44,857 bases of DNA from Escherichia phage phiA2-1. Position 1 is the stretch's first letter; every line of letters begins with the position of its first letter. The stretch is from the sequence record OR861626.1. One strand, written 5' to 3'. A model generated the notes under the pieces. It did not search any database, had not been told where the DNA came from, and saw nothing but the letters and a program-made list of their open reading frames with translations. This document shows, one piece after another, positions 4,694 through 42,550 of the stretch. The position numbers were made by a program, and so were the translations under genes.

Positions 4694-5061
4694 ACTACAA
4701 CGAAATCGAATCAATCACTCGCGCTGGCATTAACTTCTTTAGTGATGCAAATGGCGTTTACGAAATGAGCACTGGCGATGGATATGTTGAAATCGTTAAC
4801 GGCGTTGAAGTAGAGGTGCCAGCGCAAACATTTCAGCTTAATGGTTTGGTGCGAGAAATAAAGACGCGAGATATCGATGGTGAGTTTATCCAGTTTGGCG
4901 ATAAGCGCGGAATCTTCACGGCCCAGGCAGAAATCAAGCAGGGTTATCAGATTAAGGTTGATGGTGAGACTTTTGTTGTTGTTGATCCCCGCCCAGTTAA
5001 ACCGACTGGTACAGTTGTTGGGTATAGACCGATTCTTCGTAGGGTGGCTACTTATGGCTAG
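4690..5061 (+). CDS. Head-tail adaptor / head closure protein (putative)
   Basis: ORF in track from 4678; ATG at 4690 overlaps the upstream stop (ATGA). Confidence 0.3.
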   Translation: MNYNEIESITRAGINFFSDANGVYEMSTGDGYVEIVNGVEVEVPAQTFQLNGLVREIKTRDIDGEFIQFGDKRGIFTAQAEIKQGYQIKVDGETFVVVDPRPVKPTGTVVGYRPILRRVATYG

Positions 5062-14804: not shown

Positions 14805-17800
14805 ATGGCACAAATGATCAAAACAAACATGAGGCTTTGTGATATGGCTGAAGAGATTAAGATTTATGGTGCCAAGGGTGGTAGCCAAAAGCAGCATCAA
14901 CCAGTGGAGCAGGAAGATAACCTAATTTCACTTAACAAGGTTAAGGTTCTTTTGGCGGTTGCTGACGGTGAGGTGGATCCTAACTTCTCATTGAAGGATT
15001 TATACCTTGCTGACGTTCCGGTACAAAATCAGGATGGTAGCTACAACTATGAAGGTGTTCGCGCTGAGTTCCGTGCTGGCACGCAGTATCAGGACTATAT
15101 CGCCGGGCTTGACGGTGCTAACTCAGAGATTCAGGCATCCAGAGAAATCAAGAACGATACCCCGTACATCATTGCAGTTAACAATACTCAGCTTTCAGCA
15201 ATTCGAGTTAAGCTATTCTGGCCTCGACTGGTTAAGCAAGAAAGCAATGGAGACCTGAACGGAACAACCTGCGAGTATGCAATTGACCTTTCTGTTAATG
15301 GTGGCGCTTACCAGGAATACACTCGCGGAGTTGCTAACGGAAAGACCACTACAGGTTACGACCGAAGCATTCGCGTAAACCTTCCGGCAGAATTTGATAG
15401 CGCGCTTGTTCGCATCCGTAAGATTACGCCGGATTCAACAAGTAGCACCCTGGTTAACGGTATGCAGATTACAACCTATCAGGAAGTAATTGACGCTAAA
15501 TTCCGCTATCCGCTTACGGCTCTGGTTTACGTTGAGTTTGGTTCTGACTTGTTCCCTAACGGCATCCCAACAATCTCAATCAAGAAGAGATGGAAGTTGA
15601 TTCAGGTTCCTACAAACTATAACCCTGAAACCAGAACTTATAGCGGCACATGGAATGGTCTATTCAAGATGGCATGGTCAAACAACCCAGCATGGGTTCT
15701 TTATGACCTAGTAACAAACCGCCGTTACGGACTTGACCAGCGAGAGCTGGGTGTAGAGATTGATAAGTGGGGCCTGTACGAAGCTGCACAATTCTGTGAC
15801 CAGATGGTTCCAGATGGCAAGGGTGGCTTAGAGCCGCGTTACCTTTGCGATATGGTTGTACAGAACAAGGTTGAGGCTTACACGCTAATTCGTGATATCT
15901 GTTCAATCTTTCGCGGCCTGACTTTCTATGACGGCGAAAAGATTGGCATCGTGGTTGATAAGCCTCGCAACCCATCTTACATCTTCACCAATGATAACGT
16001 TGTAAACGGATTGTTCAGTCGCACATTTGCCAGCGATAAAAGTCTTTACACCACGGCAAACGTTCAGTTTGATGATGTAGAGAACAACTATCAGCAGGAT
16101 GTTGAGCCAGTATTTGAGCTTGAGGCTACTCGCAGGTTCGGGTTTAATCCAGTCGACCTTACGGCAATTGGCTGCACTCGCAGAAGTGAAGCAAACAGAC
16201 GCGGCAGATGGCTCCTAAAAACCAACCTGAGAAGCGAAACTATCAGCTTCACTACCGGGTTGGAAGGCATGATTCCGATGATTGGCGAGGTTATTGCAGT
16301 TAATGATGCGGCATGGTCGAGCAACTATCAGTTGAACCTTTCCGGCCGCATTGAATCAGTGCAGGGGCTACAGGTTTTTACACCGTTTAAAGTTGACGCA
16401 GCGCCGGGTGACAGAATTCTTCTTAACAAGCCAGACGGAAGCCCGGAGGCAAGAACTATTGCCAGTGTTTCGGAAGACGGCAGAACAATCAACCTTAACA
16501 CTGCTTTCAGTTTTGTAGCTCAGCCAGACACTGTGTTCGCAATTGATAAGGATAACCTTGCGCTTCAGCAGTATGTTGTGACCGGGATTCAAAAGGCAGA
16601 TACTGACGGCTCTGATTCATTTCAGTACACGATTACTGCGGTGGAGTATGACCCTAACAAGTATGACGAGATTGACTACGGCGTTAATATTGTTGACCGT
16701 CCAACTTCAGTCGTAGAGCCTGATAGATTGTCGCCACCTGAGAATTTAACAGTGTCAAGCTACAGCAAGGTTGTTCAAGGATTATCAGTTGAGACGATGG
16801 TTATCGGGTGGGATAAAGCGCCATACGCTAAAACCTACAATGTTCAGTGGAGAAAAGAGAATGGCAACTGGATTAACGTACCAAGAACAGCTAGCACAGA
16901 GGTTGATATCGAAGGTATTTACGCAGGAATTTATGACGTTAGGGTTCGCAGCGTATCAGATACTGAAAACGTGTCTGCCTGGTCTGGTATTGTAACGGTA
17001 TCGCTAACTGGCAAGATTGGTCGCCCATCGGCACCTACGGTTATCACGGCGTCAACTGATGAAGTATTTGGTATCCGTGTTAAATGGGGATTCCCTGAAG
17101 GCTCTGGCGATACTGCTTACACTGAGCTTCAGCAGGTTCCAGATAATGGTGATGGTACTTACAATCCTGATAATGCAAGTTTGCTTACGTTACTTCCTTA
17201 TCCTGCCTACGAATACTGGCATACGCCAATTCAGCCAGGTAAGGTGATTTGGTATCGCGCAAGATTGATTGACAGAATCGGAAATACCTCTGATTGGTCT
17301 AATTTCGCAAGAGGCATGAGTACTGACGACGCAAACATTATCAATGATTTCATCAAGGTTGATATTGAAGGTTCAGAAGGATTCAAATACCTCGAGCAGA
17401 ATGCGATTCAAAAGAATCAGGACATTCAGAATCAAGCTGAGGCAATTATCGAGAACGCACTGGCTAATGATGGCGATGTTCGCAGAATGACAAAGGAGAA
17501 CGGCAAGCGTAAGGCTGAATATGTTCAGGCTGTGAATCTCATAGCCGATGAAACTCAGGCGCGCGTAGAGGCTCTAACGGCCCTTAAGGCGCAGATAGAT
17601 GATGAAGTTGTAGCATCGATTACAGAAGTTCAGACTGCATTAGCCACAGAGACAGAAGCAAGGACTACTGCAGACACGACTCTATCAGCAAGACTTGGTG
17701 AAAATGAGGCGGCTTTAAACCAGAAGCTGGACGCATTCTCTAATGCCACATCGACTGGTGTGCAGTACGGAATTAGTCTTGGCCTGAAATACAATGGACA

Positions 17801-18161
17801 GACTTATTCATCCGGTATGAGCATGGAGCTTGTCGGCACTGGTGACAATGTTCGTAGTCAATTCATTTTTGACGCAAACAGATTCGCTATCAGTAACGGC
17901 ATTGGTTACGGCTCCGGTCAGTGGCAACTCCCCTTCGTTGTCGAGAATGGAAACGTAATCATCAAGAGTGCAGTTATCGGCGATGGCTCAATCAGTAACG
18001 CGAAGATTGGTAACTTTATTCAGTCTAATGACTGGGGTACAAATTCAGGCTGGAGGCTAGATAAGGATGATGGATTGACGCTTAGGGGTTCCGATCGTGG
18101 CAAGATGAGAGTCCTGGACCGGAATGGAGTGGTTAGGGTAAAATTAGGATACTTGGGTTAA
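14805..18161 (+). CDS. Tail tip / host specificity protein (lambda J-like central tail fiber)
   Basis: 1118 aa; strong resemblance to lambda J, e.g. NYNPETRTYSGTWNG...AWVLYDL...RYG...DKWGLYEAAQFCDQMVPDGKGGLEPRY; ATG at 14844 is a plausible alternative start. Confidence 0.8.
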   Translation: MAQMIKTNMRLCDMAEEIKIYGAKGGSQKQHQPVEQEDNLISLNKVKVLLAVADGEVDPNFSLKDLYLADVPVQNQDGSYNYEGVRAEFRAGTQYQDYIAGLDGANSEIQASREIKNDTPYIIAVNNTQLSAIRVKLFWPRLVKQESNGDLNGTTCEYAIDLSVNGGAYQEYTRGVANGKTTTGYDRSIRVNLPAEFDSALVRIRKITPDSTSSTLVNGMQITTYQEVIDAKFRYPLTALVYVEFGSDLFPNGIPTISIKKRWKLIQVPTNYNPETRTYSGTWNGLFKMAWSNNPAWVLYDLVTNRRYGLDQRELGVEIDKWGLYEAAQFCDQMVPDGKGGLEPRYLCDMVVQNKVEAYTLIRDICSIFRGLTFYDGEKIGIVVDKPRNPSYIFTNDNVVNGLFSRTFASDKSLYTTANVQFDDVENNYQQDVEPVFELEATRRFGFNPVDLTAIGCTRRSEANRRGRWLLKTNLRSETISFTTGLEGMIPMIGEVIAVNDAAWSSNYQLNLSGRIESVQGLQVFTPFKVDAAPGDRILLNKPDGSPEARTIASVSEDGRTINLNTAFSFVAQPDTVFAIDKDNLALQQYVVTGIQKADTDGSDSFQYTITAVEYDPNKYDEIDYGVNIVDRPTSVVEPDRLSPPENLTVSSYSKVVQGLSVETMVIGWDKAPYAKTYNVQWRKENGNWINVPRTASTEVDIEGIYAGIYDVRVRSVSDTENVSAWSGIVTVSLTGKIGRPSAPTVITASTDEVFGIRVKWGFPEGSGDTAYTELQQVPDNGDGTYNPDNASLLTLLPYPAYEYWHTPIQPGKVIWYRARLIDRIGNTSDWSNFARGMSTDDANIINDFIKVDIEGSEGFKYLEQNAIQKNQDIQNQAEAIIENALANDGDVRRMTKENGKRKAEYVQAVNLIADETQARVEALTALKAQIDDEVVASITEVQTALATETEARTTADTTLSARLGENEAALNQKLDAFSNATSTGVQYGISLGLKYNGQTYSSGMSMELVGTGDNVRSQFIFDANRFAISNGIGYGSGQWQLPFVVENGNVIIKSAVIGDGSISNAKIGNFIQSNDWGTNSGWRLDKDDGLTLRGSDRGKMRVLDRNGVVRVKLGYLG

Positions 18162-41072: not shown

Positions 41073-41655
41073 ATTAGATGACGCTTTAGCATGGTTCGCT
41101 TACGGGTTGATTGTTGGTGGGGGGATAACTTTAATATGCCTGGTGGTGGTGCTATGAGTGAGTTAACAATCTGGTTTATCGCAGGGCTGGTTACTTGGGC
41201 TTACTTCCTGGTGGCAGCATGAGAGCGTTGAGAAAGATTTTTTACGGCTGCAAAAAGCATCACTACGTTTACTTTCGTGATATTGAATGGTTCGAGGAGG
41301 CTAATTGAAAGTATGGTTTTAAAACAAAGTTAATATGCAAGAAATGCCGGCACATTGAGAGCAGCAGGGTTGGCGTGATGATTTGCCGCAGCACACTTGA
41401 CGACATTGCGTATGGAAAGCTCAAACATCCACCAGTTAAGCCTTAACTGTTAAAAAGAGCTTGCATCACTGACTGGAAACTTCTAATATTAACCACGTAG
41501 ACAAACGAGGCCACCATGTGGCAACGGCGCACGGAGCGCAACTACTAAGTCCGTTGCTCATTAAGTAGCGTATGCGGCATTAAGACCTAGCGCAAATAGG
41601 CATATTAACCGGCTGTATCAGGCAACCCCGGAGCCGTAACCGGGACTCATTCAAG

Positions 41656-41733
41656 GCTCTGCTAGCTCAATTGGATAGAAGCAACGACCTTCTAAGTCGT
41701 AGGTTACTGGTTCGAATCCAGTGCGGAGCGCCA
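41656..41733 (+). tRNA. tRNA-Arg (anticodon UCU), CCA encoded
   Basis: Hand-folded cloverleaf: acceptor GCTCTGC/GCGGAGC (one G-U), D-arm with GG, anticodon stem ACGAC/GTCGT with loop CTTCTAA, T-arm ACTGG-TTCGAAT-CCAGT, 3' GCCA. Confidence 0.7.
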
Positions 41734-41748
41734 ATAAAGGAGTTCATT

Positions 41749-41931
41749 ATGTGGGATGTGAAGTTGTCCATTCGCTTAATGGGCCGCAGTTGCAAGAGTT
41801 GCACTCAAGATTACATCGCGTCAGTTGCCGCAATCAGCGCTGAGGATGCGGTAGCGAAAGTAAAAGAGATGTCGGGCGCTGACCCTGGCACTCACAAATT
41901 CCTGGTAGCTTACGTTCGTGAGCGAAAGTAA
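41749..41931 (+). CDS. Hypothetical protein
   Basis: Track ORF from 41671 overlaps the tRNA; ATG 41749 with AAAGGAG RBS is the credible start. Confidence 0.4.
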   Translation: MWDVKLSIRLMGRSCKSCTQDYIASVAAISAEDAVAKVKEMSGADPGTHKFLVAYVRERK

Positions 41932-41975
41932 AAAGTGTTATACCCTCGTTAAGTTTCGTTTCTCTCGTTGTTTTT

Positions 41976-42000
41976 AGCCCTCGCTTGAGGGCTTTTTTTC
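41976..42000 (+). terminator. Rho-independent terminator
   Basis: AGCCCTC-GCTT-GAGGGCT plus T7. Confidence 0.55.
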
Positions 42001-42010
42001 GTCTGTAATA

Positions 42011-42019
42011 TGGTATAAT
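42011..42019 (+). promoter_or_regulatory. Extended -10 promoter element (TGGTATAAT) upstream of the terminase genes
   Basis: TGnTATAAT match; similar terminator/TATAAT/AAGGAG arrangement to that upstream of 4008. Confidence 0.35.
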
Positions 42020-42043
42020 CTGGCATCAACAAAGGAGGATTAA

Positions 42044-42550
42044 ATGAGCAAAGCAGCATTAAAGATGGGTGAGGGAAACTTCAAGGCGCTTTACAACAAG
42101 AAGTATGGCGATATTGCTATGGTTGCAATCAACCGCAAGTACACGCCAGAAGAGGTGTTTAATTTTGCCGTTAGATACTTCTCCTGGGCTGAGGGTGAGG
42201 CAATTAAAGCTATCGAGACAGCGGCTTTCCAGGGTGTGGTTAGTGAAAGCCTGGTGCACAAGCCTCGGGTATTCACCTTAACTGGCCTGGCACTCTTCAT
42301 GGGTGTTAATATCAATAGGTTCGCTCGCTGGCGCGGTGAGGCTGGGTACTCTGACGTGATGGAGTTTATTGATAACGTAATCTATGAGCAGAAATATCAG
42401 CTTGGCGTTGCAGGTATTATCAACTCCACCATCGTTGGTAAAGAGCTTGGCATTGATAAGCCGCAGGAGATTACCATTAGCAACAACTCCACAGCTAACG
42501 ACGTTGATAGCATGAAGGAAGCGCTGGAATCTGTGATAAGTAAGTTATAA
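42044..42550 (+). CDS. Terminase small subunit (putative)
   Basis: 168-aa ORF immediately upstream of terminase large subunit; AAGGAGG RBS; HTH-like FTLTGLALFMGVNINRFARWR. Confidence 0.55.
   Translation: MSKAALKMGEGNFKALYNKKYGDIAMVAINRKYTPEEVFNFAVRYFSWAEGEAIKAIETAAFQGVVSESLVHKPRVFTLTGLALFMGVNINRFARWRGEAGYSDVMEFIDNVIYEQKYQLGVAGIINSTIVGKELGIDKPQEITISNNSTANDVDSMKEALESVISKL

Follow-up and report, generated by a model that had tools for sequence, protein, structure and literature searches.

The locus

The window analyzed here is the whole stretch of 44,857 nucleotides (nt) from Escherichia phage phiA2-1 (sequence record OR861626.1), a T1-like E. coli phage of the Drexlerviridae (Braunvirinae, Rtp group). 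A first-pass annotation had marked in it a tRNA-Arg(UCU) gene, preceded by a structured stretch for which a processed leader, a degraded second tRNA and a small RNA were considered. Comparison with related phages showed that the ~160 nt before this tRNA (41497-41655), hereafter the leader, are a copy of a predicted structured RNA conserved throughout the Drexlerviridae. The nearest record for the leader and tRNA region is phage DTL, with 89.8% identity. The leader unit and the tRNA gene are composed as follows (class A stands for the Braunvirinae; alignment A5 and covariance model R1 are described below).

41450-41489, plus strand: putative sigma-70-type promoter of the leader unit, read from the sequence and conserved in relatives
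41497-41509, plus strand: single-stranded 5' tail GUAGACAAACGAG, matched by model R1
41510-41522, plus strand: hairpin H1, GCCAC-CAU-GUGGC; all 5 pairs change on both sides across lineages
41523-41526, plus strand: junction AACG, invariant in alignment A5
41527-41539, plus strand: hairpin H2, GCGC-ACGGA-GCGC; 99% paired, 4/5 pairs change on both sides
41549-41578, plus strand: P3, a Braunvirinae-specific helix (GUCCGUUGCU / AGCG..GCGGC) with conserved loop CAUUAAGU, from RNAalifold
41586-41600, plus strand: hairpin Hx, CCUA-GCGCAAA-UAGG, from comparison with relatives
41612-41626, plus strand: hairpin H3, GCUGU-AUCAG-GCAAC, with covariation in class A
41627-41644, plus strand: hairpin H4, CCCGG-AGCCGUAA-CCGGG, loop motif ..CCGUAA, with stem covariation
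41645-41655, plus strand: linker ACUCAUUCAAG, the 5' leader of the tRNA, from leader comparison
41656-41733, plus strand: tRNA-Arg(UCU) gene with encoded CCA, called by ARAGORN and Rfam and annotated in relatives

Covariation evidence for a conserved RNA

The stretch upstream of the tRNA had been called highly structured, a description that fails in thermodynamic terms. Folded as RNA, 41440-41655 has a minimum free energy (MFE) of -52.2 kcal/mol compared with -52.7 +/- 4.3 kcal/mol for dinucleotide shuffles (z = 0.12), with 108 of the 200 shuffles at least as stable on the plus strand, and the opposite strand gives z = 0.81. The MFE is at the level of shuffled sequence, and the structure was seen only when relatives were compared.

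Our first alignments covered ten phages and then sixteen class A phages. Within class A, H1 shows double changes in 6 of the 16 sequences, its stem reading GCCAC/GUGGC in the window, CCAUC/GAUGG in SU57 and DTL, and CUAGC/GCUAG in TR2. RNAalifold on the 16 class A sequences pairs CCGU with GCGG in P3; TR2 and ES carry CCAU/AUGG at this place, a GC->AU double change, and U.G / U-A / C-G variation is also seen among class A. The H3 stem turns from GCUG/CAGC into GUCG/CGAC in 7 of the 16, and the H4 stem, CCCGG/CCGGG in the window, reads GCUGG/CCAGC in TR2, ES, IME542 and SCS31. H3 of the window has a C.A mismatch (41613/41625) that is peculiar to this phage, its relatives having C-G. The hairpins GCCAC-CAT-GTGGC (41510-41522) and CCCGG-AGCCGTAA-CCGGG (41627-41644), which the first-pass annotation had read from the single sequence, are H1 and H4 and are borne out, the former by compensatory changes in relatives and the latter by its covarying stem. 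The helix CAACGG...CCGTTG had been proposed as well; the letters are there, but relatives alter one side only, and CCGUU covaries with the downstream GCGG(C) to give P3 instead.

The middle of the leader is lineage-specific, with whole hairpins gained or lost and modular insertions in Rtp, AugustePiccard, JeanPiccard and OzMSK; the Hx loop GCGCAAA, for instance, sits on another stem (CACC/GGUG) in Rogue1. A hairpin equivalent to H3 abuts H4 directly in other lineages. The H3-H4 module is tandemly duplicated just 5' of the tRNA in JulesPiccard (L024) and A110b (L025), and the H4 loop of the second copy is changed (AAUCAUAA).

Alignment A5 holds 21 5' modules, none of them from the Braunvirinae, with H1 and H2 imposed as structure. 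In this alignment, 91.9% of the H1 and H2 cells were paired and 60 cells were changed on both sides, compared with 62.7% and 21 cells when the 3' partners were shuffled, a control that ignores phylogeny. Sliding the partners by 1-3 columns, which retains relatedness, left 20-51% paired. MAFFT misplaced the Braunvirinae rows and the gaps in H4; the 5' modules were aligned by model and the H4 stems counted by script. The model-fitted alignment of 59 distinct rows, which leans towards the model, gave 91.5% paired cells and 151 double-change cells (54 in shuffles). For H4, 14 distinct stem variants were counted, with 69 of the 70 cells paired compared with 50.2 +/- 2.4 in shuffles. Across the class A helices G.U occupied 38 cells and A.C a single one. 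As G.U so far exceeds A.C, the pairing works on the plus strand only, which points to an RNA co-oriented with the tRNA.

The covariance model R1 was built from the 21 sequences of A5 and calibrated quickly, so that its E-values are rough. Run with filters off against both strands of the window (44.9 kb), it gave a single hit at 41497-41545 on the plus strand, with 33.6 bits and E = 8.8e-10, the next best score being 8.3 bits. Right after the sigma-70-type promoter, the window has the tail GUNNACANA[AC]GAG followed by H1, AACG and H2; at the 3' end (41612-41644) it has H3 abutting H4 with a loop ending in CCGUAA, the same module that is found in T1, LL5, Nouzillyvirus and Rogunavirinae. The unpaired nucleotides are invariant: those of the tail (family consensus G-U-N-N-A-C-A-N-A-[AC]-G-A-G, with columns G1, T2, A5, C6, A9, G11, A12 and G13 invariant in A5), AACG, the RCG-type H2 loop and CCGUAA of H4.

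The putative promoter has an A-rich segment (41450-41459), a -35 hexamer TTGCAT (41461-41466), a 17-nt spacer containing CTGACTGG (41469-41476), and a -10 hexamer TAATAT (41484-41489), from which we infer that transcription would start at ~41495-41497. A strict promoter scan missed it because its -35 fits at 3/6 positions only. The form TTGAC(N)-17-TAnnnT is found at equal distance before the RNA in every lineage examined, and the scan called it in T1 and in locus L060. The spacer motif CTGAYYGG is conserved across Drexlerviridae lineages. Genome-wide, the window holds 25 copies of this motif (13 on the plus and 12 on the minus strand) compared with 4.3 expected (sd 2.2, maximum 14 in 100 shuffles), most of them within coding regions and one in the leader promoter spacer; a DNA-binding site and a Chi-like signal are both possibilities.

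A covariance-model search of the upstream region, proposed in the first-pass annotation, was run with Rfam 15 (4227 models). No family matched 41440-41655 at E <= 10, nor the leader positions of 11 other lineages at E <= 5.

Distribution and independence from the tRNA

The relatives all have an unannotated 150-350-nt gap at the leader position, and further lineages were reached by BLAST walking, inspection of the locus and TerS sampling. Diverged leaders are present in the Rogunavirinae (Rogue1, Jk06, AHS24, phiKP26, phiEB49, Sd1 and Opt-79), upstream of tRNA-Arg(CCU), Trp+Arg or Arg+Val, and also in Nouzillyvirus and ETEP102. Nouzillyvirus PH1062 and P817 have no tRNA, and H4 is followed there by the Shine-Dalgarno sequence and start codon of a phrog_2919 homologue. 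The same promoter and 5' motif, again with no tRNA, were found in Webervirus K7, Tlsvirus LL5, Tunavirus phi2013, Hanrivervirus egaa and metagenomic contigs with 44% TerS identity. Altogether, the leader was found at a site without tRNA in PH1062, P817, T1-type phages, LL5, egaa, K7 and L033, and the TerS identity of tRNA-less lineages that carry the element is 44-56%.

A TerS-profile scan of IMG/VR yielded 80 loci, among them phage T1 (L075), many of the loci being closely related to one another; a regular-expression scan of these found the motif in 57 (50 distinct sequences). R1 was then applied to 100 loci and gave 90 matches, all on the plus strand and all at the leader position upstream of terS except for three weak extras (L091, L056, L043). 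With filters off, two more class A loci were recovered and one other weakly. The 5' module is present in 72 of the 74 IMG/VR terS loci that have enough upstream sequence, T1 included. The two loci without an R1 match (L062, L063) have a divergent 5' part together with a typical H3-H4, Shine-Dalgarno sequence and phrog_2919 ORF (open reading frame). Among GenBank phages, R1 matches members of Braunvirinae, Rogunavirinae, Nouzillyvirus, Tempevirinae, Tunavirinae and Webervirus. An exact-pattern scan of IMG/VR with AACGGCGCACGGAGCGC returned few true matches and three chance matches.

The downstream cargo varies between Arg-UCU, Arg-CCU, Trp+Arg, Arg+Val and small ORFs alone. Seven loci with different tRNA cargo at the same site, L006 (TR2), L009 (ES), L019 (Rogue1), L039 (Sd1), L043 (phiEB49), L015 (IME542) and L023 (SCS31), carry Arg(CCU), Trp+Arg(CCU), Arg(CCU)+Val, or Arg(UCU) with a different body after an extra hairpin. 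This variety points to repeated tRNA replacement at one insertion point. The linker ACUCAUUCAAG is recognisable as a remnant of the sequence that precedes the Shine-Dalgarno sequence in tRNA-less relatives (AACCAUUCAGGAG and variants), and owing to this resemblance, insertion of the tRNA between H4 and the ribosome-binding site seems likely. The tRNA-less relatives keep the element right before the ribosome-binding site of a small ORF, which suggests that the tRNA is cargo inserted into a cassette of leader, small ORF and terminator. We are confident that the locus very probably encodes a conserved functional leader RNA with the tRNA as cargo. The options of a processed leader and of a small RNA, both raised earlier, were each half right: the stretch would form the 5' portion of the tRNA precursor, yet the tRNA is not the reason for its presence, as the same promoter and RNA occur in phages that have none.

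The tRNA gene and upstream reading frames

The tRNA-Arg gene is intact, genuine and ordinary, and it was already known. ARAGORN, run on the whole window, called a single tRNA, tRNA-Arg with anticodon tct at 41656-41733 on the plus strand, and the Rfam tRNA model (RF00005) scored the same coordinates at 58.2 bits, compared with a gathering threshold of 29; the first-pass assignment, including the CCA end encoded in the DNA (41731-41733), is confirmed. A failure of tRNA predictors to call the locus had been named as what would count against it, and the ARAGORN call speaks for the gene. A tRNA-Arg at this locus is annotated in SU57, JeanPiccard, AugustePiccard, OzMSK and other Rtp-like E. coli phages, and the MSK genome paper mentions a tRNA-Arg gene (PMC8421802).

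Of 5426 complete E. coli genomes, 5424 carry a tRNA-Arg gene to which the phage gene is 78-88% identical. This host gene, presumably argU, shares with the phage gene the anticodon UCU and the encoded CCA, but its acceptor and T arms are unlike those of the phage tRNA. Related phages have at the same site Arg(CCU), or Arg(UCU) with a different body. Codon counts on a crude set of 38 ORFs gave 12.7 AGA and 8.7 AGG per 1000 codons, and AGA+AGG made up 224 of the 523 Arg codons (~43%). This is several-fold above the usage of E. coli, which makes a decoding role of the tRNA plausible, and the rare-codon rationale given earlier for AGA stands: the tRNA-Arg would supply decoding of AGA, a codon heavily used in the phage genome.

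Directly 3' of tRNA-Arg, a tRNA-like gene of ~102 nt is found in CEB_EC3a (L017, ~4746-4847), PCEc3 (L001, 1812-1913) and ESCO41 (L040, ~1165-1265). It has acceptor and T arms, CCA, a long extra arm and the anticodon loop CUUAUAC, whose anticodon UAU would read Ile AUA. It is given as tRNA-Ile in one GenBank record, is not called by ARAGORN, and is absent from the window.

The view that the upstream stretch holds no credible ORF was upheld, all overlapping ORFs being <=32 amino acids (aa) long. Among them is a 10-codon ORF (MWQRRTERNY*, 41516-41548) whose AUG arises from the CAU loop of H1, with GAGG before it. Most relatives lack this AUG, having CAA as H1 loop, and in SU57-type phages an in-frame AUG lies 3 nt further on. 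Leader indels among relatives are not multiples of three and the reading frames differ. A leader-peptide attenuator was rejected on these grounds, the AUG at 41516 not being conserved and the frames not being kept.

The cassette downstream of the leader

Beyond the tRNA, the window continues with the following features.

41736-41931, plus strand: Shine-Dalgarno AAAGGAG and 60-aa ORF (41749-41931, phrog_2919), conserved protein cargo
41976-42017, plus strand: intrinsic terminator ending the cassette (41976-41993 and U-tract; terminator call), taken together with the promoter that follows
42009-42017, plus strand: extended -10 promoter TGGTATAAT for terS, directly after the terminator
From 42044, plus strand: terS, with its own promoter upstream

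In T1-type, Tlsvirus, Webervirus, Hanrivervirus and metagenomic lineages, too, phrog_2919 homologues are located 3' of the leader. For the 60-aa ORF, PHROG lists the function as unknown, Pfam gave no match, only close homologues were found, and the fold is a generic beta-beta-alpha-beta one. In all sampled Drexlerviridae, a strong terminator ~90-110 nt before terS is followed at once by a conserved extended -10 (TGnTAnAAT) ~30 nt before terS (1689-1730 in L075, ~1690-1760 in other loci), which is probably the promoter of the late or packaging operon. The cassette consists of the leader, tRNA(s) in some phages, small ORFs with phrog_2919 always among them, and the strong terminator, and it sits just before the separate terS promoter. 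Because of this terminator and the separate terS promoter, the leader heads a self-contained cassette and not the late operon.

The junction between leader and cargo differs among lineages. Where no tRNA is present, H4 lies ~10 nt before the Shine-Dalgarno sequence of the first ORF, while in this phage the tRNA lies between them. In Hanrivervirus-type phages, the hairpin with the conserved CCGUAAGAC is a long GC stem with U5-U8, an intrinsic terminator, and the ribosome-binding site of the first ORF follows directly. The window, T1 and LL5 have no U-tract after H4. In the window, H4 is followed by ACUCAUUCAAG and no terminator was called; the GC-rich hairpin and U-tract before the first gene that an attenuator of the intrinsic-terminator kind should have are seen in Hanrivervirus-type relatives only.

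A possible cis-acting role of the leader

In the mechanism that we propose, the host RNA polymerase would start at ~41496, and leader, tRNA and ORF would be transcribed as one RNA. Cleavage by RNase P at the 5' end of the tRNA would then free a leader of ~160 nt, carrying a triphosphate at its 5' end and protected by a hairpin at its 3' end. As a cis-acting regulatory RNA, the leader would bind a factor by the unpaired nucleotides that never vary (in the tail, AACG, the RCG-type loop of H2 and the CCGUAA loop of H4) and thereby determine how much the cassette yields. In lineages whose H4 is an intrinsic terminator, termination would be the step controlled; in the others, control would fall on the ribosome-binding site that follows H4. 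A cis-acting, factor-binding leader is offered tentatively, as one plausible mechanism that we would not call probable by itself. As for the explanation as a whole, made up of the leader RNA, the steps above and the cis-regulatory mechanism, we lean slightly towards it as the best one.

Several points weigh against it. The promoter, the start site and the release by RNase P are all putative, and single-sequence folding of the leader is unexceptional. In this phage the leader and the ORF have the tRNA between them, so that a purely translational operator role of H4 would be lost, yet the leader is retained and even enlarged. This retention fits a released small RNA or a co-transcriptional role like that of the put sites about as well, which is why the cis mechanism is held so tentatively. 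The terminator character of H4 is lineage-specific, the window copy having no U-tract, and the Webervirus version has neither H2 nor the CCGUAA loop, so that not every module can be needed.

Two more specific versions of cis control were tried and rejected. Pairing of the tail with the ribosome-binding region of the first ORF gave duplex energies no better than those of shuffled tails in 22 lineages, none with p < 0.05. Extended kissing of the H2 and H4 loops (ACGG:CCGU) works in the window and in Hanrivervirus but fails as a contact of 4-5 bp in T1, L068 and L071; only an invariant RCG:CGU of 3 nt remains, which is beyond the reach of covariation. The H2 loop is UUCGUAA in L040-L042 and L021 (Nouzillyvirus/ETEP102), the same letters as in the anticodon loop of tRNA-Thr(CGU) of E. 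coli, and H4 loops (UUCCGUAA, CCGUAA), that of L087 among them, resemble it. This likeness may be coincidence or anticodon-loop mimicry.

Alternative explanations

The alternative that fares best, although we think it unlikely, is that the leader itself is the product, a stable small RNA that would act in trans, either regulating by base pairing or serving as a sponge or decoy for a protein, its tail or loops acting on host or phage targets. Its 3' end would be made by RNase P together with the tRNA in this phage and by the terminator in Hanrivervirus-type phages, and the existence of two independent routes to a discrete 3' end, by the tRNA adjoining H4 or by a terminator with U5-U8, speaks for it. 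Seed-first small RNAs have a single-stranded 5' end followed by hairpins, and the conserved tail of the leader before its hairpins has the same layout. The class A leader, moreover, is kept and enlarged though cut off from the ORF. A perfect 14-nt complement of the H4 5' arm and loop lies at 17908-17921 inside an ORF of 1119 aa and may be such a target, ~0.05 chance 14-mer matches being expected. This site (plus strand GGTTACGGCTCCGG, in the ORF at 14805-18161) is complementary to leader positions 41628-41641 (CCGGAGCCGUAACC), and its 14-mer is common in IMG/VR. In T1, Tlsvirus and Webervirus, however, the element runs into a Shine-Dalgarno sequence and ORF without any 3'-end signal, and the tail differs at several positions among lineages that all infect E. 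coli. Neither a homologue nor a target was found in the host, and a host origin or mimicry of the leader was rejected since none of 5426 E. coli genomes held a match to it.

Less probable still is processive antitermination or anti-pausing of the put or nut kind, in which the nascent H1-H2 would bind RNA polymerase directly or through a phage or Nus factor, allowing read-through of the leader terminator, of Rho sites in the untranslated leader-tRNA region, or of the cassette terminator. The module always begins at +1 with H1 fixed 13 nt from the start, and its two stem-loops in the first ~50 nt are comparable with HK022 putL, which spans ~70 nt right after PL and likewise forms two stem-loops (PMC9378689). 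Some lineages have a terminator immediately downstream, and such a function would survive insertion of a tRNA. On the other side, BLAST and the E. coli genomes showed no sequence similarity outside the Drexlerviridae, and the element occurs once per genome while put has L and R copies. The conserved extended -10 promoter of terS after the cassette terminator also argues against it, as the late genes need no read-through when terS has its own promoter there. A boxA-like UGCUCAUUAAG is seen in Braunvirinae only (9/12 matches, p ~0.05) and is absent elsewhere. Nus-dependent antitermination through a boxA was accordingly rejected, the GCUCUUUAACAA-like boxA reaching 9/12 in Braunvirinae only (p ~0.05 per sequence) and other lineages <=7-8/12, the level of chance.

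A small-molecule riboswitch seems quite improbable. Its aptamer would comprise the tail, AACG and the loops of H2 and H4, the CG loops perhaps kissing like the ACGR loops of guanidine-II, with the terminator or adjacent Shine-Dalgarno sequence as platform. Invariant unpaired nucleotides flanked by covarying stems of variable length would suit such an RNA, terminator and Shine-Dalgarno-adjacent versions both occur as they do in known riboswitch classes, and RCG of the H2 loop and CGU of the H4 loop are complementary in most lineages. The loop-loop contact, however, is beyond covariation support, as neither side varies; entire hairpins have been inserted between its proposed partners, and Webervirus has neither loop. 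No multi-stem junction or closing helix was predicted, mini-ykkC and all other Rfam riboswitch models gave no match in 12 leaders, and the downstream genes give no clue to a ligand.

The chances are slimmer again for an element acting as DNA, such as a pac site, a replication origin or an inverted-repeat operator near the packaging genes. Its position 0.4-0.9 kb upstream of terS in headful-packaging phages would agree with this, and the genome-wide excess of the spacer motif CTGAYYGG (25 compared with 4.3) suggests some DNA-binding activity. However, the stems keep their pairing while the sequence changes, the opposite of what a protein operator would show, the 38:1 ratio of G.U to A.C means pairing on one strand only, and the element always starts ~7 nt after the -10 hexamer, co-oriented with tRNA and ORFs.

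Finally, we give practically no credence to a degraded second tRNA, or to an inert tRNA 5' leader kept by close kinship: the element adjoins a tRNA and some relatives have extra tRNA-like genes at the locus, but ARAGORN made no second call, no tRNA-clan match apart from the known tRNA-Arg gene came up in 41250-42050 at E <= 10 in Rfam, the helices form no cloverleaf, the element persists in tRNA-less lineages with a TerS identity of 44-56%, and the compensatory changes argue for selection on structure. With these alternatives weighed, a factor-binding leader acting in cis is the mechanism we retain, at the strength given above.

Significance and comparison with known systems

The leader is a previously undescribed structured promoter-proximal phage leader RNA, to judge from the lack of any match in Rfam 15, the E. 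coli genomes and the literature searched. Searches for small RNAs, leaders or transcriptomes of Drexlerviridae, T1 or Rtp found nothing on the element, and the MSK genome paper reports "no sRNA" (PMC8421802). T1-like phages, which are classic models, turn up very often among isolates from therapy and the environment (a TerS tblastn search gave 980 related GenBank records), and their gene regulation is almost unknown. A covariation-supported RNA after a conserved promoter in nearly every member offers a handle on the control of the cassette next to the packaging genes, and it explains the unannotated gap upstream of the tRNA in every deposited genome. The tRNA genes appear to be interchangeable cargo at one precise site, between H4 and the ribosome-binding site, which bears on how phages acquire and express tRNAs. 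The covariance model can be used for annotating Drexlerviridae genomes, and the element is a candidate for Rfam. It is conceivable, although we regard it as doubtful, that the leader represents a new class of phage regulatory RNA present in all T1-like phages: a promoter-proximal module that reprograms the host RNA polymerase or captures a host or phage protein, and one at which captured tRNA genes (Arg-UCU, Arg-CCU, Trp, Val, Ile-like) have repeatedly landed and been expressed, with a 3' end made by a terminator or by RNase P depending on the lineage.

The leader belongs to none of the systems closest to it in function, namely put of HK022, the lambda PR' leader with the tRNA genes of Stx phages, and the stable RNAs of T4. 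Of these, HK022 putL/putR resembles the leader in being phage-encoded, in lying at or just after the start of a sigma-70 promoter, in having two stem-loops within the first ~50-70 nt, and in needing no ORF (PMC9378689); put RNA is ~70 nt long, with its stem-loops immediately downstream of an early promoter (PMC9378689). The leader differs from put in being single-copy, with no sequence or model similarity detected (no BLAST matches outside Drexlerviridae), in having the extra 3' hairpins H3 and H4 with a conserved loop of its own, and in heading a cassette closed by a terminator, beyond which the late operon has a promoter of its own. The action of put itself consists in binding the zinc-binding domain of RNA polymerase beta' and suppressing downstream terminators, with no need of protein factors. 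The guanidine-II (mini-ykkC) riboswitch has two hairpins with ACGR tetraloops, whereas the leader loops are 5-10 nt long (ACGGA, AGCCGUAA) and have no Rfam match.

The lambda PR'-tR' region gives a leader known as the "6S" transcript, and Stx phages carry the tRNA genes ileZ-argN-argO downstream of PR'. Like the leader, these systems combine a constitutive-looking promoter with a short untranslated leader, closed by a terminator in some lineages, and with rare-codon tRNAs (Arg AGA/AGG, Ile-AUA-like) placed in the leader before late or packaging genes. Unlike lambda PR', no Q-like gene or qut-type pause was identified here, the leader is defined by RNA helices and not by DNA sites, and the late operon has its own promoter. 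The stable RNAs C and D of T4 (species 1 and 2), which lie in its tRNA gene cluster, are likewise small structured RNAs of unknown function that are co-transcribed with phage tRNAs and freed by tRNA-processing enzymes, as the leader would be. They belong to another phage family and have another sequence, and the leader, unlike them, also occurs without a tRNA and always lies 5', next to the promoter.

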